DNA of 54,615 nucleotides, counting the filler, from Bipalium vagum (Eukaryota), in assembly GCA_037834085.1 (NCBI GenBank). It is 3 parts of 3 records of this genome, joined end to end, with 100 filler letters (N's around TTAATTAATTAA, not from the genome) between each part and the next. Parts side by side here need not be neighbours in the genome. Positions count along the whole stretch, not along the records: positions 1 to 15,892 come from JBBMKC010139479.1; 2 more parts are not named here. The stretch is one strand, 5' to 3'. Each line of letters starts with the position of its first letter. The stretch's first letter is position 1. Shown here in pieces: positions 260 through 35,090 of the stretch. A model generated the notes under the pieces. The model ran no database searches. It was not told where the DNA came from and worked only from the letters and a program-made list of their open reading frames with translations. A program made the position numbers and the translations under genes.

Positions 260-426
260 CGGAGATACCGGATTCGAAAATTTTCTTTCAATCTCCCTCT
301 GATATAATCTCCTTCCATCTGATTGGCTGATCTCATTACATAATATATTATTTAAACGGCACATTTTCAATTCAATTAGACCCTTCACATGCGCATGGAC
401 TGCCCTGACCGCTGAGCTAGATCCCC
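260..426 (-). pseudogene. Interrupted tRNA-Ala-derived sequence (tRNA nt 1-48, 100-bp insert, T-loop and 3' acceptor strand)
   Basis: Minus 426-379 reads GGGGATC TA GCTC AGCGGTCA GGGC A GTCCA TGCGCAT GTGAA GGGTC, which fits tRNA numbering 1-48 with an A box and CGC at the anticodon position. Minus 278-260 reads TTCGAAT CCGG TATCTCC G and pairs with GGGGAT, including the G3-U70 Ala determinant. The anticodon stem is degenerate. Confidence 0.7.
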
Positions 427-450: not shown

Positions 451-564
451 TCTCACTCCTTTAAAGCTTACATCCAGACTCTTAACCGCCCCGAGTCTCT
501 TTATTTCCATTTCCATTCCATTACTTTACTTTTTCACTTTTACTTTTTTTTTTTACTTTTTTTT

Positions 565-3500
565 CCAAATATTCTAGGAAGACAGTCAACGAGAACATGA
601 GACAGCGTCTCCTCCGGTTTATTGCATCTTCTGCATCCTCGGAACACTGAACCGCGATGAGCATTAATCTGAATATAATAAGATCGTGTACAGTGGATGA
701 AATACTAAGTGACAATTGATATTTCACCGTTGAAAATTGGCGTTGTTGAAAGCGTCGACTGACCGATTGACGAAACGAAGCAACCTGCACTGGATTGAGA
801 ATTCCATCTGTCGTTCCATGCGTGTTTCACGAGATTGTGGAGAACTTTGTATATTATCTTTGAGTCTCTGGGTTTAATGATCCCCTTGTTCTGATAGCTT
901 GAGTGAAAATGTTGGAAGTACTTCAAACAAATGCCATTTTCATTCTTTTTGAAATTGATTGATATTTTATGGCGTGATTTTATTTGATTAATGGTTGAAC
1001 GTGTCTTTTTCCACCATCAATTTTGAAGACATTGAACATCTCTTTGATTCAACCATTCAAAAGCCTGTTCTTTTGAGACTTTCTTGCCCAAGCCTGGATT
1101 TGAAGGAGCAGAAATTAGCGAAGAAATTGAGATGCGTCTGATGAGTTCGTCGGAAGAGTTGAAAAGTTGAAACACATTTGCAATTGACTGCAGTATTCAT
1201 CAACAATAGAACCAATACCTGCTCCGAAATGAGATTTCGGTGTATACATGTATTTTATCGATGACCGAATACCAAGAACAAGGATACTTTTCAACTGACG
1301 CCGAATATTAGGCTCTATTGCATTTTTCCCTTGTGTGATTTCATTAAAAGTGATGTAATTGTTCCGAAAAGCAAAGATCATTTTAGAGCGAATGAAGACA
1401 TGATAAGCATTCAATTTCTGCCAAGGATAGAGAATGCTATCAGCGATCGTTTTCAGTTCATGTATGATTTATGCAAACAAAGATCTCGATGGAGAATGGA
1501 GATTTTCACAGAAATCAACATCCAAGTAGCGATAGGTTTCATCAACCGTCATAGTACCAATAGGAAATTCACCAATTCTCAAAGCGAATGCATTTGGAAC
1601 TTGAGGGACGAAAAAACAAAAGCACACTTTGAGGGCCGGAATTTCAAGAGGAGCCATGATAATACCTGAACTGCACGATTCAGGAGGTCTTCTATATGTG
1701 AACAACCGGTAGCTAAAAGTACGACATCATCTGCATATGCAAGCGCTCAACTGATATTCACGAAGCAGTACACCGCCGCTCAACACCGCACATGAAATAC
1801 GATTGGCAGTTTCTATATAAAGCTTCAATCAATTAACATGATTGAGAGCCAACACTCATTCACCGAATACAACCAGTAATGAAGAAAATATCAATACTGC
1901 CGAAAGCATCAGCTACATCGAGAAAATCAATATGCAGAGGCATATTCAGTTCTCTCCGATGTCGATCAATTAAGTCTTGAAGAAGAAAAAAAACGGACCA
2001 AGGCTCTTTTGCATCGGATGTAAAAGATTATTGGCATTCAACCAACCAGAAAGTTGTAAAGATAAAGCGTAAGCGAATATCTTATATGAGCATTCAAGTG
2101 AAGCAATTGGTCGTCATGAATTGATATCATGGTACTCTCCTTTTATCATTGGCTTCGAAATAATCAAGGTAGAAAAAGACTTCCAGCGAGAAGGAAGAAA
2201 TAAATCGTCAATTATTCTGTTGAACATGGATTTTTAGCAACGGATCACAGTATTTGATGTCAGCATAGATGATGTTCCTAATACCTGGAGCTGAATTCTT
2301 GCAGGATTTTAAGATTTTCTATAGTGAATCACATTCAATTAAGTGGAAATCGAATTGTGATCTTTGTTTAATAAGATTAAATTGAGACCAGTCACAAGAT
2401 GGTGGATACACTGATTTTTGTTTGTAATATCCGTTAATCTCATCCATAGACGGTGTGCAATCCGCAATTGTCGTGTCTACAATAATTTTGAAAGCTGTTG
2501 ACGGAGTAATATGATAAATTTTCCTCATATTAATATCCCTGTGACCTTTCACTAGACATTTTACCAAGAAATACGTTTTTCTCCTTAATCTGCCTCAATT
2601 CATAAATGTAGTTGACTAGTCTATTATCAAATTCGTTGTTAGAAAGGTTTTGCTATAAACAATCAGAAATTAAACTTTCAGCTATGGAAATTCAAGCAAC
2701 AAAAGTAAGAATTGGCTTAAAATTAGGAGATTTTGACATGGATTTTAGAATGCGATTTGCATTTGACCGAATAACATTACAGTTTACTCCGAAAAGTGAA
2801 GAAAAATGAACAAGACCCAACATCAGTTCACTAACAAGAGGTCCACTGTCCTTCCTATGCTTCATTTTCTGTTGTTCAGGTGTATCAAAAAAGAACGAAA
2901 ACAAAATTTGATCAAGAGAAAACAGTGTCACCAATCTTGCAATTGATTTCACTGACGTAGAAAAATCGGTTTTGCTTTTTTCGTTATTTAGATCAAGACA
3001 ATACACTATTTTATTAGAAAAGTTAACAACGAAAAGAATTCAATAATTTTCACTGCAAAAATATGGACACAAGACGAGTTTCTTATCTTTAAACATTTTG
3101 AAAGTTACATAGTCACTAATAAATTCCAAATTTTCACAAACAAGCACCTTACTTATCAAACGATACAAAACAAGGATTTCTCTATTATTAATGTAATGAG
3201 AGCAATACGACACAAGATGATCGTCCTTGAAATATAAAAGAGAGGAAACGTCATTTAAAGCTACGGAAAAAGATTTTGGATTTTTAAATATTGAAATTTT
3301 TTTTGAAGTTATAATATCAAGAGGAAGTTATTCGGAATTACCACGACCAGAATAAAGAGATTTGGTATTGAGAGAATTTTAATATTAAATGCTCTTTTTA
3401 GAATTTTAGCAATAAACTTTGGATAAATTACCAATTTATATGTATCTCAATGTTTATCAATCAATTGTAAACAAGTAACCACAATTGGTCCACAATCATA

Positions 3501-5078
3501 GCCATTGTTTTGTTTACTTATTTCCAATTGACAGTCAATTATTTCCACGTCGATTCCGAATGCCAAGTTCAAAGTCAAATTCAAAACTCCTATCTGATTG
3601 ATTAGAAACATATTCAGGCATGAATGGTTTCAGAAGAGGATCGAAGAAAAAGGAACTTAAGCTAATTTTACAATAGATAAAGGCAATTCAATTTTGAGTT
3701 AGAATTTTCAAAGGACAAAAAAGCTTTTCAGAGGAAAAGAATGATGAAAAAAGTTTTGGATAAAAATCAATGCCATTTGCAAGCCGAATAAAATCAGAGG
3801 ATTAATACAAAATGCCATACCATTAGACACATATTCAGAGAGATAACAGTGAATATCTGCATCTGTAAACAAGGAATTATATTTGAAAGTCTGGTTAGAA
3901 AGAGTTTCTCGCTTACTTTGTGCTATCTACACCTGTCAAATCGAGAAAATCTGAAAAAGTGTAGGCAATGATTTCAACAGGAAGAAATGCGAGTATTGAG
4001 CTGAACCATCTTCTGCCTAGTTCCAGCTGGGATTTGTGTGAAGATTGATGTCTAAACTGGAATTTTAGAAGGAGATTTGATTTTATTATCTGATTCATAA
4101 TTTTTATTTTCCCTCTAACGATTTCGGTAACCTCTGAATTATTATTGATTTTATTTTTAGGTTCCATTTCAGCACAACCCATTTCAATAAACTCTATTCG
4201 ATGCATTTCTTGCATATTGGAAAGCAGGTGGTTTCTGTCTTTAATAAAATAATTGGTTTAGCATCAGCACAAACTTGACAACAAGTTTTAATATTTTGAT
4301 TCTTATGCTCTATATCTTTGTCCCTTAATGGTGGAATTTTAAGAGCTTGATGAGTAATTTTTGGTCTTGCACAAAATGGAGTTTTGTCACAGAATATTTG
4401 TATTTTTTTCAAAAGTGTCTCCATTGTAGAGTTCACATCATTTTCTGAATCTGGCTTGAATTTTATAGAAGGGACCATATCCAAGTTAAATTCTTTAATA
4501 TTTCCTTTTAAAGTTGAAATTTTTTCTTTAAACATTAATGATAAAATTTATTTTCTAATTTTTCCCTTAAATCCCTCCCTTAAATCTGATATTTTAAAAG
4601 TTTTATTAAACGCTTTTGTTCATTAATATCGGAACAATTAATTTCGATTGTCTTTAAAAAGTCATTCAAACTTTTCTTTAATAATGGAAATAAGTCATCT
4701 GTGAAAGCTGATGATACATCCATATTTTACGTATGTAAAGGATTTCCTCCGAAATTGATTTCACAATTGCATCCAGAGTATCTAGAGTAGAAGCAATATT
4801 GGACGACTTCCTCTCGACTGATCTCGACAATCAAGGTATCATCTGATTGGCCTTCACCTGCTTGTCATTGGTAAGTAGATGATTACTCGAATTTGACAAG
4901 ACTTAACCAGAATTTGAGCAAAATCATCAACCAGAGGCATTTTTAAAAATCTTTGTTCACCATCACATTTGACGTCAACAGATTTTCTAGAAAAACTATC
5001 AGAGAACAGAAAAAATTGAGTCGAATATATCCTCAAGGTATTTCATAAAATCTGAAAACGAATTTTTCAAGATTTTTG
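565..5078 (-). mobile_element. Decayed non-LTR retrotransposon of the RLE group (NeSL-like): CxxC..CxxC finger, two Ulp1-like protease domains, RT, CCHC knuckle
   Basis: Minus-strand motifs across stops and frameshifts: CQVC..CKKC (~4200-4280); LFTDADIHCYL / FCPL..N*IAF..FFDPL / QNNGYDCG (3470-3880); a second similar domain (2810-3240); CKNSAPG (~2285-2305); AYADDVVL (1717-1740); HAWNDRWNSQSSAG; T*YFIHCTR; CRRCNKPEETLSHVLVDC (582-635). Confidence 0.9.
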
Positions 5079-5144
5079 AAAATTTTCATCCAATCTCCCT
5101 CTGATGTAATCTCCTTCCATATGATTGGCTGATCTCATTACATA

Positions 5145-6540
5145 TGTGGAGCATCCCACAATAGACATTTCTTTAACATATCCCATTTTGCTGTTTACTG
5201 ATTTTTATTTGATCAATAAATGTTATGATTTTTAGTAAATAAACATTTTTTAACATAAACTTACTTGGTATTAGATGCCGGGTGTTCATGATTGCTCGGC
5301 TCTCAGGACAAGGCCTGTTCATTGCACTGCGAACAGGCTGCCTCCTGCGCTCATCCAAATCGGGTGAGTCAAACACGTAATTTTTGATTGATTTAATGTT
5401 GTATTCATTTAAAGATGTATTGCTGATTATCAAAAAATTCTCTTTTAAATAATTATTACTATTGTTATTATCATTGTTATTATTAATTATAAATCATTAT
5501 TAGAAAAGTAATAAATAAAGAATTTATATAAAAAATAAAAATAGAAAACAATAGAAATAAAATTATAAAATTTGTTTAAAATATTTTTTAGATATATAAA
5601 AGTATAGTAATTTCTAAAAAAGAAATTACATATTACTAAAAATAATAATATATAAAAAATAAATAATATAAAAAGGCTTACCTAAGAGCATAAAAAACAC
5701 AATAAGAATCTCTCCATCGACAAGCAATACATAGAAAGGCCAAGAAATCGTTGATAAAACAAATCAGACAGCAGTAAATTAAACAGTGCAGTCACGTACA
5801 AATTCCAGTTAAATATCAAGGTGCACATTCCAAAACCCAAAAACAAATTCAAACACACTTGCATCACTGCCTATATAAGATAAATCGTTCAACGTGGTAA
5901 AAAGAAATTACAAACTGAATTAAAAGAATAGCCAAGGGTTAAGACAAGAAGGAGGTTAATAAACATAAACGAACACAAATACTTGAAGGTAAATCATTTG
6001 GTTATTATTGTTATTATTATCCTTATTTCAATTATTATTATATCGATTTATACTCTGTGAGAACAGAAGTATTAAATCTACATTTTATTAAAATAAATAA
6101 TCAATCACAGTTGCGCAATCTTAACCGATTGACGTAACTTTTAATTAATTTCTCTCGTAAATAACTACTCGGTGCTTCATCGTTGATCAAATAAAAGTTT
6201 TTTGTTTTTCCCTTTCTTTTTTGTTTAAAGTGTACACAGCCGCTAGCTGGTAAACTTCCTGAGGGCTTTAACACACTAGGCTAAGCCTGTGTTTAAAGAT
6301 TCTGATAAATCAGCACAAAATCTCAGTAACCCTTGTAATTAAAACTTTGTCGAAAAATTTATCAATAAAGATTTTATTTAAAAGCTGTGTTCTCTTAGTT
6401 TATTTTTGATCGACTTTTTATTTTGTATCAGTGATTATTTAGTGCTTCAAACGTTCATCCGTAAGTCCTTCTACAATTAAGTAACCTAAAGCAGAGTTAA
6501 GTCTTTTAAATTCAACCCATATTTTTAGGAACTTAACACA
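5145..6540 (+). mobile_element. Probable solo LTR (1.4-kb TG...CA insertion)
   Basis: It splits repeat copy 2 precisely. Ends are TGTG...CACA. There is a TATA-like ctatataag at ~5871 and AATAAA at ~6190. No convincing ORF, and the target duplication is unclear. Confidence 0.6.
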
Positions 6541-6576
6541 ATATATTATTTAAACGGCACATTTTCAATTCAATTA

Positions 6577-6612
6577 GACCCTTCACATGCACGCGGACTG
6601 CTCTGATCCCCC
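6577..6612 (-). pseudogene. Second tRNA-Ala-derived 5' half with D-arm deletion
   Basis: Minus strand GGGGGATC-AGAGCAGTCCGCGTGCATGTGAAGGGTC is homologous to 426-379 but lacks TAGCTCAGCGGTC. Confidence 0.6.
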
Positions 6613-9600
6613 GACTAATTTTCAATTTATCTCACAATAATATTTTTTACACATCAAATATAAAATCACATCCTTTTTGAATTATAAAAATGAAGTCAGT
6701 AAGCCTTACGAAGCCTTTTCATGCACATTAAATGTAAAATTAGTCAAATGTTTCAATTATTACTTTCGGAGAGCTGTCCTCATCCTCCATCAGCTTTTGA
6801 GGTTTTGTTGTTGTTTGTTTGAAGTAATCAGCAGTTCCTGAAAACTTTTGGTTGGAGGTTTGTGTGGGTTCAGTATGGGTTTTTATCAGTTTTGCTATAG
6901 CTTCCAACATATACATTCTTTTTCTATATCTCTTCGCCAATATCCTTCTAGTGGATTTTACACTGTCAAACACTTAAGGATATGGCTCCTATTTTAAAGT
7001 AACCACTCATTATTATTATTGTGGGGACTCCCAGGCCAACGATATGAAGATAAAAAATGAAAAAGAACCCTTATATGACATGACTTGTTTATGATCCAAA
7101 TATCTTATATGTGTGCATGTTCTTTTGATAACTTAAAAAACTATTCCTGATGTGATTCAATCCTTTGCATGATAAATCTGTATAAAAATGGAATTATTAT
7201 AATTTTTGGTAAATGTATAAAAAATGTTTTGGTAAATGTAAAAAAAAGAATATTGTAATTGCTAGTAAATCCTGTAAAATACAAATAAAATTCATTAAAA
7301 TTAAATAAATAATCAAAATATAAATAAAATTATAAAATTCAAAAAATATGGAAAAAATTAAAAATATTTCTAAAATTAGAAAAAATAATAATAATAATTA
7401 CTTAAAATAAAGTGATATTAAATTTAAATTAAATAGTCTCAATAAAAATATTTATAGAATATTTAAATTAATAAAAATATAAAATAAATAACAAATTTAG
7501 TATAAATATAAAACATTTATACAAACGAAGCACGACAACAATAAAGACGAGAATTTAGTCAGAAAATTAATTAGAAAATTCATAGAATAATCTGGTATCA
7601 AATTTCCAGCATTGTCAACAGAGAATATATTGGTATCAAATAGCAAATTAATTTGGATACGGAACTATCAGATCTGATAGATCATCTAGAGTTACCAGAA
7701 GATCCAATATATAAAGTAGCAACAATTCAATCAGGAAAACCAAAAAACCAAACAAAATAAAAAGGAAAATTAATCAATTTAAGCATAAACAATTCGTCCA
7801 AATAAACAAAAAGGAAAATTAGTTAAATTGATCGTAGTCAACTCGACCAGATAAAAGAAAGGAAATCAGTCAACTTGATCATCCAGAGAAGAACTGAAAA
7901 TACAGTTAATTTGATTATACAGGAAAGACAGCCGACATTTCTATTAAAGAAATTTATTCAACCTACGACAAAGCTTGTAATCAATTCCAAACGAAAAGCT
8001 AAGAATCTACTTAGACTCAGTCTGACGAACCTTTTTCACGACGTTAATATAACTAGCCAGAATAATATTCTATTAGAAAACTCGGTAAAAATCTAATAAT
8101 TTATATTTATACATATTTAAAAATAATTTAAGATTACTCCGAATTGCAATTTGATTTAAAATTGGACAATTCTTTTTCTAACTTGACTACAAGTTAGTAA
8201 ATCAATAATTAAATTAAATAACCAGTCAAAGTAAACGGATAGATCCCCGAATACTTTCGAATCATCAAATAAAATTTTCTTTTTTGTTCTTCCAATATTT
8301 TTTTTGCCTTCTCAACGTCAAGTAGGGCGGAGAGGCGCTTTTTACTTTTGAGGGCTCTTGAGGCTAGGTTTAGCGAAGAGCATAAACATTATTCTGATCC
8401 TTCTCCGGGATTTACTAACAAACTATTATTTGTTCAACAAAGTTTTTAATAAAGTTTTTAAATTTATAAAAAAGATTGTTTTGTTTTGTCTTAGTGATTA
8501 AATTTTTATTGAAGTCAAATTTAAGTTTTGATTCATATTATTTCGCACCCAAATTACAGTTACCCAGTCGATTTTCCAGAAATAACATATACAATAGCAA
8601 CCTTTCATATAAACAGAGCATGACACTCTCTAAATCCTTCTGAAATATACGAGTCGCGTTAAGTTTTGGAGAAATCTCGAGAATCCAAATTAATTAAAAC
8701 TTAATAAATCCAAACCTCCAAGAACTTAACACTTTATTTATTTTTAATTTTAAAAAATTAATTAATGTTTGCTTTGATTGCTAGTCTGAAACCAATTAGA
8801 TGAATTTGTGAATTGAACTGAAAAACTTTTGACTGATATACTTTTTGATATTGACTAATGATCAAGATTTTTTGATCAAATTGATTATAGATTGATCACT
8901 AAAATGAAATTTATTTCTCTTCCACTTTGATTCCGACTCCCACATTATTATCGATTATATTATTTTCATTATCAATTATTATTATAAAAATAAAAATAAA
9001 ATCACTTACAATGTGTGCATAAAAATAATCGATTAGAAATGGGAGTGAGATTGAGCATTTTAACTCGACATTGGTCTAATATCCTCAAATAAGACTCATA
9101 AACACAGTGGGGAAATGCCTGTCTCAAAATTTTCAGACAATTAAGGTGGAATTAATGGGCTATCATGGGAAATATCTTTCCAAAGTGGAGATTGGCAGTT
9201 GTGGATCAATCTCTACTGCTATATAAAGCAAAATTTCGTCTAGAAATTGTTTTTAAAATTATTTAATTTGAAATTATTGGATTGGTTGAATATTAGAAGA
9301 TTGTGTTGATGAGATTATAAGAAAAATTGTTTGTTTAGGAAACCAGAAAGTTATTGCATTAAGAGAGGTAATTCATTCAAGTCAGAGTTAGAAGTTATCG
9401 TCAGAAAATTATTTCCATTTGCGTCAGAAGAATTGGACCGTTTTCTTCTCACGTTTATGTCCTTATTTTCATCCTCATGAAATTTCAATTGGTCACGTAG
9501 AATTAAAGAATCCTAGGTGACAGAACAGGACCTAGCGGGTAATCCGGGAAACCGTTGAGCGCTCTGGTGAGTAATGTATATTGTTTCATTTTTCTTCTAC

Positions 9601-24469: not shown

Positions 24470-25843
24470 CTAAAATAATTTCCTACATAAAAATCTGCGG
24501 TACGCTAATCTGAAATCTTTAGAAAATAGAGCGTATATCCAAGGATTCAACAACGAGTTGCAGTACCCCAACCAGAAGACCGAGTCGAACAGGTTTTCCG
24601 GAATGTTTTTATAGAAAGCTCCAGCCACGTACACCATGAAGAAAGGAAGCCAGCACAAAATGAATGCCCCGCAAATAATTCCCAACATTCGCGCTGCTTT
24701 AGCTTCCCGTTGCATTCTGCTCAAAGGAAGATGAAAAATCTTTATATCACTGTTTTGAGTCAAACGTCTCTTGTCCTTCGACAGGCTTAACGGAACACCT
24801 TCGATGTTCGATCGAGAATACTCAAAATCAGACTCCAGTCCAATTTCCAGTTGACTGTAACTTATGGATTCTGGTGATAAGCTGTCGTTGATTGTGGATT
24901 TCTGGCTGTCGGACTTGTGGAAAAAGTGCTTCGTTTGCATATGGAAAGGGCTTTTGTTACATTGGCAAAATTTGCAGGAACAATTATTGATATTGTGCAA
25001 GGGGGTCGATTGAATCAATTTTCCTTTTTCATCGGAATTGTCCGGACAATGAGATTTATCACTACTCCCACTGCGAAAACCGCCACAGTGAACTCTCATG
25101 ATTATCGTTTTTCCATCTCGGTTCTTCAGTCGACCTTTGGCAATACCGGAAATGGTCGCATGTACCGTAGCAAAGATACTGGCATAGAAATAGACCATTA
25201 TTGTCAGCGGTATGTAATAGGAACCAAAGGCAGAATAGATAATATATCCCGGAGACGAATCGGTTATACTGCATGTTACCAGAACGGAAATATTATTATT
25301 ATTATTATTATTATTATTCGTAAAGTTATTAATGGGTCGCATGTCGGAAATTTCAATGTTAATCATGGTATTGTTGTTTACCAGTGAGAGAAATGTCGGA
25401 AATGATATGATAAATGCAAATATCCAAACCGACGTCAGAAGAATTTGGCAGTTTTTATTCGTCATCCACGACAAATAACGGATAGGGTTACGGATGGCAA
25501 CGTAACGGTCGAACGAGATGACCGTTAAGTTCAGTATGCTGGCCGTACAGAGCAGCACGTCGCAGGCCAGCCACATTTTGCACAGAACATTGCCGAAGAC
25601 CCACTGGCGAGTCAAGACTTGATTACTGATTGAAAGAGGTAAAACGATAATTCCCAATAACAAATCACTAACGGCCAGATTAATGATGAAAATGTTCGTT
25701 TTGTATCTGCGCAGCTTTATCGACGTCGATGCGGCGATGATGACCAGAATGTTGCCTATTAAAATGGATAAATCGATCATGATCAATATTATCAGTACGA
25801 CCACAGAATCCAACGACAGGAAGTTAGTGAGGTTTCTCGACAT
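24470..25843 (-). CDS. Aminergic class A GPCR, most similar to the alpha-adrenergic-like octopamine receptor (Octalpha1R/OAMB type)
   Basis: Seven TM segments with GNILV, LAVSDLL, TM3 CDVLLCTASILNL (amine-binding Asp), DRY, TM5 YSAFGSYYIP, MRVHCGG, CWLPFF and FWLGYCNSLLNPWIYALFSKDFR. The first ATG is at 25843 (MSRNLT). An acceptor-like ttctcccAG before 25861 allows for an upstream exon. Confidence 0.93.
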   Translation of the reverse strand: MSRNLTNFLSLDSVVVLIILIMIDLSILIGNILVIIAASTSIKLRRYKTNIFIINLAVSDLLLGIIVLPLSISNQVLTRQWVFGNVLCKMWLACDVLLCTASILNLTVISFDRYVAIRNPIRYLSWMTNKNCQILLTSVWIFAFIISFPTFLSLVNNNTMINIEISDMRPINNFTNNNNNNNNNISVLVTCSITDSSPGYIIYSAFGSYYIPLTIMVYFYASIFATVHATISGIAKGRLKNRDGKTIIMRVHCGGFRSGSSDKSHCPDNSDEKGKLIQSTPLHNINNCSCKFCQCNKSPFHMQTKHFFHKSDSQKSTINDSLSPESISYSQLEIGLESDFEYSRSNIEGVPLSLSKDKRRLTQNSDIKIFHLPLSRMQREAKAARMLGIICGAFILCWLPFFMVYVAGAFYKNIPENLFDSVFWLGYCNSLLNPWIYALFSKDFRLAYRRFLCRKLF

Positions 25844-26349
25844 CAATGCTTTCGTTTTCACCTGGGAGAAATCAGTGTAAATTATTCTTTATTTTCCAAA
25901 TGATACTGACGAAACGAAGACAGGCATAAACCAATCGCCTCCAATGTATAAACGAATAAAAAATCCTTCTTTCATGATCAATTAATTGTGATTTGGTTGG
26001 CTATTTTAATATGGATTTTATTTTTTAAAAATTATATTTTATAAAAATATTTCTGAAAAAAAAATATATGAAACTTTTCGTTTTATAATATGCTAAAAAC
26101 ATTTATTTGATAATAACTGTAAAATATTATTTTTTATTTTATAAATTTAATTATTTTATTTATATAAATTATAATACTATAATATAATTATTATTTTTAT
26201 AAGGCTGATGGGAATGTTTCCGCCGATTTATTTCATTAATAAAGCCAATTAGTCATTGTATCATTAATAAAATCTTTTCAATATTGAGATAAATAAATCA
26301 ATAAATCGAAGTATTGTCTTTGTTTTCAAATCATTAAAAATTTTATTTA

Positions 26350-28190: not shown

Positions 28191-28689
28191 TAAAATTCCA
28201 TAGTTTGATAAGTCGTATTGAATATTAGAATTATTCATATTACTGTTAAAAAATATCTTCTCTTATTGATTGCAAATCAATAGATGTTAATATTCAGGAT
28301 CAAATGCCAAGAGCACTCTGGGATAGGTTAACGAAATCAACAAATACAACTGTCAAAAAATCGTTAACTCTCCTTGATTCTTAATTTTTTTTCCAAAAAA
28401 ATAATTTTTTTTTAAATTTTATATATAAATAATAGTTGAAAATAACTTTTACGAAAAACATTCAAAGATTTTTTTATAATTATTATTACACATTGTTTCG
28501 ATAAAATTTAATATAATTCCTAAAAAAAATTAACTCCAGCGAAAATTGATGTTTTTTATTTTTCCCATTAAGACAATAATAATCCCAGAATCACGTCTGA
28601 CTTAAATGAGCTATCTTCCGTTATCTCTTATTTTTAGCAATTTGTTATATTTATATGCATACATTATTTTATTAAAAAATTTCGAAAAT

Positions 28690-29000
28690 AATAAAACAAA
28701 AAAATATAAAATTCACTCAGTGAATATATTAAAACAAAATAACTTAAACATCACCTGAAGATAATATTAAAGAAAATTTTAAATTCACCCAAAGATTATA
28801 TTAAAACAAAAAAAATTTAAAATTCACCCAAAGATTATATTAAAACAAAAAAGTTTTAAAATTCATCCAAAGATTATATTAAAATATAAAAATATAAAAA
28901 TCACCCAGTGATTATATTAAAACAAAAAAAAATTAAAACATCACCCAAAGATTTTATTAAAATATAAAAATCACCCAGTGATTATATTAAAACAAAACAA
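28690..29000. repeat. Minisatellite, about 8 imperfect 30-41-bp units
   Basis: Recurrent unit aaattcacccaaagattatattaaaacaaaaaaaattt. Confidence 0.9.
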
Positions 29001-30005
29001 TCTAATAAATCTATAATGAAGAGAGATCAATCAAATTATTTTTTATCAAGAAGAATCGAACAATAAATTAAGATTGGTATTGATTTTCAGCGGCTTCGTC
29101 AATTGAAGACCAAACCGATTTCTTATGGAATACTAATACTATCAATAATAAAATAAAAACGAGAGAAAATGTCACTAAATTTATTTTATCACAATTTAAT
29201 ATTGATAAAAGCTTTGAAAGTAATTGAAAAAAAAATTAAATAATAGTAATAAAAAAAATTAATTCTCTAATGTTCTTTGATGGGATTATTTGTTTTAATG
29301 AATGAAAATTAGCAATTGAGGTCAGAGTGATTAACGAAATCAATTAGAAATTCGATTGATATTTGAATCCATTAATTTCAATTTTCTCATTTCATCTAAG
29401 AACAATAATAATAAATAAATAAATAAATAAAATAAATAAATTACAATTTTATTGATATTAGACCATCTTTAATGATTCCGTTTTCTGAGGGGAGAACGGC
29501 GAGCATTTCAAAACATTTAAACAAACAATGTGAACGGGATTTCATTTTTTTCCAAGAAATTTTCCAGTTTGATTGATTCAAAGGAAATTTGAAAATATTT
29601 GTTGAAATGAAACTAATTAAAGAGTAAAAATCAATAATGTGAAATCATTTCAAAATTCTCATTGCTTAAAACAAATTTTAATGGAGATTTTCACAATTTC
29701 ACAATATACAGTTTTAGATTTAATTAAATTTATTAATTTTCATTATTAAGTTTTAATAATATTTTTTTGTTTCAAATAATTATTTTAATAAAAAAAAATT
29801 TTATAAAAAATTTTAAGGTTTCTCAATTTTGATATCATATTTTTAAGATAAATCAATTATTGAAATAATTTATTTAAGATGTCTTAGAAATAAACAAATT
29901 ATTATTAAATAATTATCTCTAATTATGATTAATTTAAAAATATTTTTTTGTTTTTTTGTAAATATTATTTTAATTATATTATTTTAAAATATATTTTATA
30001 TTTTA

Positions 30006-34099: not shown

Positions 34100-35090
34100 C
34101 AATAATCATAGAAATATAATTTTAATTGAGATTTGTACTGTTTTTTGTCAATGTTTCCTCTTTCATGCATCGAATTTTGCATATTGGAGCACTTTTTTAA
34201 TTTTTTTAATTTAATTAAAGTTTTTGTTTAAATAATCATTTTTTTGAAAAATGTTTTTTAACAAACAATTTTGAAAATAAACATTTTTAGTATAATGGAG
34301 CACTTATGGTTGAGATTATTTATTATTGGCGAATTTTTGGTTTAGTCTTTCAAAGATTTGATAATAAATCAATTATTACATTAATTATTGTTTTAATATA
34401 TCAAACTGAAGCGCCAATTTCGCTGTATGATATAATTTTATAATTAGGTGGTTCAATTTAAAATTACATATCATAAAAAAATAATTTAATTGAGATCTTA
34501 AATGTTTTTTGTCAATGTTTTTTCTTTTATGCATCAAATTTAACATGATGATGCACTTATAATTAAAATTATTTATTTATATTTTTGTAATATAATGAAA
34601 GTTTTTGTTTAAATAATCATTTGTTTGAATAATGTTTCTTTAACAAATAATTTTGTAAATAAACATTCTTATTTTTTACAACAGTTCTTCCCACATGAAA
34701 TGAAGAATCTTACGTTTATTATTTCAAAACTTTGTAAATCAATAAATTTTTATGATAGTTTTTGTTTTAATATATCAAACTGAAGCGCCAATTTCGCCTT
34801 TTTAGAGAATTGTAAAAGTAAGAAGTTCCATTTAAAAATTATTTTATCATAAAAATACAATTTTAATTGAGATTTGTAATATTGATGTCAATGTTTGCTC
34901 TTTTATGCATCGAATTTAGCATAATGGAACAATTTTAGTTGAGATTATTTATTTATATTTTTGTAATTTAATTAAATTTTTTGTTTGAATAATGTTTTTT
35001 AACAAGCAATTTTAAAAATAAACATTCTTATTTTTTACATCAGGTTGTCTTACACGAAACTACGGATTTTACGTTTCTTATTTCAAAGAT
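34100..35090. repeat. Tandem repeat, ~370-bp unit, about 2.6 diverged copies
   Basis: tttaattgagat..tgtcaatgttt..atgcatc recurs at ~34120, ~34485 and ~34860. atatatcaaactgaagcgccaatttcgc occurs at ~34396 and ~34770. Confidence 0.9.

Follow-up and report, generated by a model that had tools for sequence, protein, structure and literature searches.

What does a retrotransposon do with two protease domains of the Ulp1 type, one of which carries serine in place of its catalytic cysteine? The question is raised by a 54,615-nucleotide stretch of the Bipalium vagum genome (GCA_037834085.1; hereafter the window, along whose whole length all positions are counted), the first part of which contains, on the minus strand, a decayed copy of a retrotransposon without long terminal repeats (non-LTR). 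A preliminary description had placed two tandem C48-type (Ulp1/SENP-like) domains, here called A and B, upstream of the reverse transcriptase (RT) of this element, and all the motifs it quoted, including the serine codon AGT at 2845-2847, are present where it located them. It had further proposed that B could be a SUMO/NEDD8-binding pseudo-protease paired with an active enzyme, and that the pair might counter SUMO-dependent silencing. The copy is dead, and its interest lies in its lineage: comparison with open-frame relatives and with sister copies indicates that B is a long-standing pseudo-enzyme of the C48 fold, not an active member of the family, and that its serine is ancestral rather than a private product of decay.

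Domain B reads YFKDDHL from 3234. At its histidine site it has tyrosine followed by a stop (TAT-TGA at 3045-3040, Tyr at 3045-3043), followed by the aspartate codon GAT at 2994-2992 and AGT at the nucleophile position (2847-2845). The equivalent of Ulp1 D451 is kept (3225-3223), and the equivalents of the histidine, the glutamine and W448 are Tyr, Met and Tyr; the Ulp1 numbering of W448, W515 and the glutamine used to map these sites is in part presumed. A profile built from six cellular Ulp1-like proteases gave B 6.6 bits, a score equalled in 3 of 1,000 shuffles. Against a profile made from the second domains of the relatives it reached 112.7 bits (0 of 2,000 shuffles), and the relatives' profile covered 161 of its 162 positions at 105 bits, values that are partly circular because the stretch itself had served to find the relatives. 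The preliminary description had expected two Peptidase_C48 hits; Pfam gave none in the six frames of this copy, and the two stretches appeared only in relatives. Pfam and PDB sequence searches with B from the window yielded nothing relevant, the best PDB match, a methyltransferase (E 0.012), being dismissed as chance. At the DNA level A and B share no similarity beyond 8-mers, and the duplication that separated them is therefore likely to be old.

Domain A can be followed from LFTDADIHCYL (from 3872) through KLFCPL (~3720) to its aspartate (GAT, 3642-3640), glutamine (CAA, 3512-3510) and cysteine (TGT, 3494-3492). Its His-Trp site reads AAT-TGA (Asn 3693-3691, stop 3690-3688), which leaves the His-Asp-Cys triad incomplete, a loss that the preliminary description had not flagged. 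Two frameshifts lie inside A (~3787 and ~3595) and a third ahead of B (~3375), so that with the asparagine, the stop and the shifted frames A would be inactive as it stands here. The profile of cellular proteases recognised A at 23.9 bits (0 of 1,000 shuffles as high), and the relatives' profiles picked it up as three colinear pieces (again partly circular). PF02902 gave no match to A on the frameshifted copy, whereas the relatives exceed its cut-off; a single RickCE_cat match (E 0.006) was obtained at the end of A in the six-frame Pfam search. The closest A domains, those of P0007 (42%) and P0009, both carry the histidine. Domain A is nearest to P0007 with support of 99/97, and the RT side is nearer to P0013 and P0001 (41 and 38%) than to P0007 (28%), a mismatch for which module exchange or uneven rates are possible explanations.

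Relatives were sought with HMMER among 1.84 billion representative proteins, the query being the reading frame that includes the central part of A and the whole of B. Ten proteins matched, nine with PF02902 and four with two stretches of it; P0010, an MBD (methyl-CpG-binding domain) protein that had matched an out-of-frame stretch, was removed. Cluster mates contributed P0011 and P0013, each with two PF02902 stretches (six such proteins overall), and P0014 was the sole addition from a search with an alignment as query. Word-indexed searches for homologs of B and of an RT piece found nothing among 436 and 197 candidates, respectively. A metagenome scan returned eight loci that have one protease domain each and no RT, six of which served as cellular-type references; Rfam had no match on these loci. 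The layout of the intact relatives, as drawn from P0001, P0011, P0013, P0003 and P0007, is an active-type C48 domain, a Gly-Gly linker, a Ser-type C48 domain, RT, a CCHC knuckle and a restriction-like endonuclease (RLE), with P0007 having one complete C48 domain and two more degenerate ones that lack the Trp or Asp. The closest solved structures to P0011 are R2 proteins (E 5e-44), its first domain matching Ulp1, and R2 proteins also provide the best PDB matches of the relatives.

At the nucleophile column of B, every two-domain relative that reaches this site has serine, six in all (P0001, P0002, P0003, P0011, P0013 and P0014), a count that omits P0004 and P0005 as cluster mates and P0006 and P0008 as ending earlier. 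This supports the proposed pseudo-protease as far as the serine is concerned, but the change at the histidine is not fixed as tyrosine: the column holds Tyr in two relatives, Lys in two and His in two. The D451 equivalent of B is kept in 5/5 and the W515 equivalent in 6/6 of the two-domain relatives covering each site. A partner with a complete catalytic site, as the proposed active enzyme would need, is present in the relatives, whose A domains have the full His-Trp-Asp-Gln-Cys set in five of five, and not in the Bipalium copy, in view of the lesions described above. A tree of 21 domains places all nine B rows on the same side of one branch (support 99/98) and leaves the A rows without a common group. 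Between P0001 and P0013 identity is 58% in B and 65% in A, and distant pairs share 24-28% in B and 24-30% in A (42-80% in RT), so that B appears nearly as conserved as A. From these patterns we infer one old duplication, after which B was retained under selection.

Sister copies, represented by contigs of one sequencing run, were compared with this copy over 2600-4600 and again over 2815-3720. The second comparison gave 46 majority differences in 906 bases, of which 40 are listed, seemingly ranked by share (lowest share shown 0.65, as against 0.89 over 2600-4600). Trp is restored at both stops, in 541 of 570 at the B site and in 490 of 589 at the A site (3688), and the four extra bases at 3595 are absent from 413 of 599. 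Neither 2847 nor 3045 is among the 40 listed differences, and a serine and tyrosine private to this copy are unlikely, since other such sites stand at 83-95%. The shorter comparison has 2847 close to its edge, the longer one in its interior; 3693 lies too near the end of 2815-3720, where the neighbouring change at 3698, seen in the other comparison, also dropped out. With regard to the family consensus envisaged in the preliminary description, the sister copies show the restored Trp codons and no strong majority for Cys or His, to the extent of the 40 differences listed. The majority letters also shift the end of B towards the D-S-G-P-L-x-C-G of the relatives. The frameshifts at ~3787 and ~3375 are not among the listed majority indels, and two contigs crossing 3375 are longer by 4 and 13 bases, which fits an open frame. 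In the frame of B, none of 19 changed codons is synonymous among sister copies (expected fraction 0.24, P 0.005; P 0.59 if all six remaining differences were synonymous and in B); this hints at constraint on the protein, on which we do not rely. Because serine is shared by all six relatives, the B rows group together and the sister copies show no strong majority for cysteine, the earlier suggestion that the serine might merely reflect decay of a dead copy no longer appears tenable.

Structure prediction, also proposed at the outset, was carried out for P0003 and P0013, and the evidence on fold accordingly refers to these relatives and not to the domains in the window. Both models (predicted local distance difference test, pLDDT, 62.6 and 63.3; predicted template-modelling score, pTM, 0.40 and 0.41) consist of two distinct domains joined by a linker of low confidence (pLDDT < 50). 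The B domains matched yeast Ulp1, at Z 17.7 and a root-mean-square deviation (rmsd) of 3.0 over 171 aligned residues for P0003 (residues 235-414) and at Z 18.2, rmsd 2.6 over 166 for P0013 (218-387). The A domains resembled SENP5, with Z 17.6, rmsd 3.1 and 164 residues aligned for P0003 (41-217) and Z 17.9, rmsd 2.4 and 163 for P0013 (24-194). Both domains of these relatives are thus predicted to adopt the Ulp1 fold, in agreement with a tandem C48 duplication.

As to what such a pair might do, we lean, with some hesitation, towards a division of labour in which A is a Gly-Gly protease and B a tag binder that does not cut. A would cleave Gly-Gly bonds in host SUMO-type conjugates and probably also in the element's own linker, and B, still attached to the RT, would bind SUMO/ubiquitin-like tags without cutting them. 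In the available text of the respective reports, the C580S mutant of yeast Ulp1 traps SUMO and needs D451 (PMC3216068), a viral enzyme of the SUMO-protease family cleaves polyproteins at Gly-Gly-X (PMC8619059), and loss of SUMO in flies derepresses R1 and R2 about 1000- and 300-fold (PMC7676866). Gly-Gly occurs 35-55 residues past the cysteine of A in six of seven relatives, compared to 9 of 295 background 20-residue windows, with the reservation that the window was picked after the motif had been seen, and one linker glycine is invariant (7/7).

A number of observations weigh against this division of labour. The Bipalium family has G-R-G in the linker where P0007 has G-G-G, P0002 has Q-V-G, and none of the 46 majority differences of the sister copies is a G>C change; the linker sequence here would therefore count against universal self-cleavage, and Gly-Gly may simply mark a flexible linker. 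In fold comparison, the proteases for SUMO, for NEDD8 and for ubiquitin score nearly equally, which does not tell the tag apart. B resembles the C580S enzyme in the Cys-to-Ser change and the retained D451 equivalent, but the mutant keeps its His, Gln and W448 (PMC3216068; available text), and B, natural and old, does not: the histidine is lost in four of six relatives and here, the glutamine in five of six, and the W448 equivalent is Tyr, His or Ala. Its D451 and W515 equivalents may be kept for folding instead. Domain A of this copy lacks its histidine. The ancestry of the serine has weak points, too, in that the sample comprises about six independent relatives and long branches may help the grouping of B. 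By subtraction, a T>A and an A>G are among the six majority differences outside the 40 listed; these two might correspond to 2847 and 3045, with an estimated share of 55-65%. In addition, one divergent contig has His-Trp at the His site of B (loose end at 3059).

Other explanations have been weighed. B could be an ancestral pseudo-protease that binds no tag at all and serves the RT particle as a structural module or one for nucleic acids or host factors, perhaps in place of the N-terminal DNA-binding fingers of R2. The missing His, Gln and W448 equivalents would suit such a role, as would the two still more degenerate copies of P0007, and no zinc finger or Myb domain was called between B and RT in the relatives; yet what is retained at ~25% identity is precisely the serine and the D451 and W515 equivalents, all of which lie where Ulp1 holds the tail of its substrate, and we regard this explanation as plausible but rather doubtful. 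It is unlikely that A and B stay joined as one enzyme, in which B would hold a unit of a SUMO/ubiquitin chain or regulate A while A cuts. The fixed order of A and B and the short linker in all relatives would accord with it, as would the linkers of the Bipalium family and P0002 without Gly-Gly and the finding that neither model shows the linker ordered within an active site; against it stand the Gly-Gly of the other linkers, with one glycine in every one, and the low pTM values, from which no fixed packing of A on B can be derived. Taking our preferred division of labour further, the element might have evolved a natural SUMO-type trap, in which A severs itself at Gly-Gly while the dead B stays with the RT-endonuclease, holds on to tagged host chromatin and directs insertion to promoters of small nuclear RNA (snRNA) genes such as the region upstream of U1, an extension that we consider quite improbable.

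Still less can be said for activity of B. A present or recent Ser-His-Asp hydrolase of altered chemistry would be compatible with P0011 and P0014, in which His-Trp, Asp and Ser are all present in B, and with the Bipalium contig having His-Trp; however, the other four relatives and this copy have Tyr or Lys in place of the histidine, the oxyanion glutamine is gone, and the Cys-to-Ser change inactivates Ulp1 (PMC3216068; available text), which makes this very unlikely. That both domains were once active, with Ser and Tyr arising by decay in this copy or its family, seems hardly credible. AGT and TAT are each one base away from TGT and CAT, and the copy is heavily decayed, A having lost its histidine as well; but the serine recurs in all six relatives with open frames, no strong-majority reversion is seen at 2847 or 3045, and a divergent contig (loose end at 3058) encodes the tyrosine of B by another codon, TAC.

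The element itself (Table 1) was delimited by tblastn with intact relatives, which covers 582-3908 colinearly, with shifting frames, in the order A, B, RT, CCHC. Contigs of the sister copies span 2600-4600, and 4600-5074 is assigned to the element only through its coding-like reading and the repeat at 5075; further coding-like sequence without Pfam match was noted upstream of A at 4550-5070 (minus strand). The CxxC...CxxC stretch upstream of A likewise has no Pfam match. The RT retains YADD (1737-1726) and has lost ~115 bases between 1785 and 1743. Judged by its relatives, the copy would be an RLE-type non-LTR retrotransposon: P0001, P0011 and P0007 run on after the CCHC knuckle to an RLE motif that is missing in the Bipalium copy. 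By these motifs the three relatives show the succession RT, CCHC knuckle, RLE of the NeSL clade, of which the lineage would be a candidate member; the RT tree comprised relatives of the element only. The multicopy RNA genes targeted by NeSL-type elements (spliced leader (SL), U2, 28S, tRNA) are absent from the window, and a U1 gene lies ~180 bases from the inferred 5' end of the single copy considered. No RNA dataset was listed as containing the stretch.

Table 1. Features of the element and its flanks, in window positions.
Feature	Position	Strand	Basis and remarks
70-bp direct repeat, left copy	273..342	.	65/70 identical to right copy
Decayed non-LTR retrotransposon copy	560..5074	-	Both ends approximate; 5' end inferred from flanking repeat
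Thumb/linker region and CCHC zinc knuckle (635-582)	582..1624	-	Sequence reading and tblastn
Reverse transcriptase, frameshifted	1615..2531	-	Pfam RVT_1 E 7e-4, one frame; tblastn 36-51% to P0001
C48-fold pseudo-protease domain B	2752..3237	-	Single frame; Ser nucleophile, Tyr at His site, Asp kept
Inter-domain linker, G-R-G	3340..3354	-	Alignment of relatives; Gly-Gly in 6/7 relatives
C48 domain A	~3389..3878	-	Asp, Gln, Cys kept; His site Asn; Trp site stop; two frameshifts
Upstream open stretch, CxxC...CxxC (~4283-4200), possible zinc finger	4197..4547	-	Sequence reading
70-bp direct repeat, right copy	5075..5144	.	113-182 bases upstream of U1
U1 snRNA gene	5257..5414	+	Rfam RF00003, 77.3 bits vs 69.5 cut-off; full length, back to back with element's 5' end

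The 70-bp repeats bracket the element, and the 7% difference between them is of about the same order as the 46 differences in 906 bases; they may stem from the duplication of a long target site upstream of U1, or else belong to a dispersed repeat that has no connection with the element. The U1 RNA begins with ACUUACUUGG and has U in place of the Rfam-consensus C in the arm that pairs with splice donors. A second repeat occurs at 338-450 and 6536-6636 (94/113 identical), its left copy occupying the expected place of the RLE domain. Read on the minus strand, the repeat presumably has a likeness to the 5' half of an alanine tRNA, a call made neither by ARAGORN nor by Rfam. We set aside 338-450 as the 3' end of the element, because this sequence also occurs by itself at 6536-6636 and looks like a tRNA-like repeat in its own right. 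Elsewhere the window (27% G+C) contains a second, distantly related RT fragment (47515-48075, minus strand, RVT_1 E 6e-8) and a rhodopsin-family receptor frame of aminergic type (24470-25888, minus strand), uninterrupted over 472 codons and with alpha-adrenergic receptors as best PDB matches. Self-comparison revealed diverged tandem repeats and one imperfect palindrome at 34105-35087, 28688-29011 and 39929-40106.

Why mobile elements have repeatedly captured Ulp1 has so far met with suggestions only (PMC2836005; available text). A conserved pair of a live and a dead domain divides this question in two, the substrate of A and the binding partner of B. Were B indeed a natural trap, a retrotransposon would read as well as erase the SUMO/ubiquitin-like marks of its host, with a tie to the SUMO-dependent repression of R1 and R2. 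R2-like proteins are in use for gene insertion, which lends an unrecognised class of N-terminal module practical interest. Our literature searches on tandem or inactive proteases in such elements and on SUMO proteases or silencing of transposons found no live-plus-dead pair, for which a Repbase annotation may exist, and those on U1 targeting by RLE elements found no report.

The parallels in known systems are partial. The C580S trap (Elmore et al. 2011, PMC3216068; available text) has in common with B the Ulp1 fold, the Cys-to-Ser change and the D451 equivalent. African swine fever virus (ASFV) pS273R is an enzyme of the SUMO-protease family that cuts the virus's own polyproteins at Gly-Gly-X, but it is viral and acts on separate polyproteins, and offers an analogy for the linker only (PMC8619059; available text). 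Ginger1 and Mutator likewise captured Ulp1, but these are DNA transposons with one C-terminal protease domain per element (PMC2836005). In the available portion of PMC4640811 (Kojima and Jurka 2015), the R5/LIN elements of planarians are NeSL-related RLE elements aimed at multicopy RNA genes (28S, tRNA-Arg, tRNA-Glu), without mention of a protease and without a U1 target (0 snRNA matches in its S6 Fig). The same source describes one Ulp1-like protease domain each, with His and Cys, in nematode NeSL and in Utopia-1_TSP of the NeSL clade, and reports the protease in nematode families only. Like these, the present lineage is non-LTR and combines RT, a zinc knuckle, an RLE (in the relatives only) and an N-terminal Ulp1-like protease, and the layout of A (W/F-x-x-D, P-x6-HW, D, Q-x5-CG) is that of the 12 element domains in S5 Fig of that article. 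Unlike them, it has two such domains (three in P0007), the second of them Ser-type, and no SL or U2 target here; beside the published single-Ulp1 NeSL and Utopia elements, the live-plus-dead C48 pair would thus, as far as our searches go, be a new layout.

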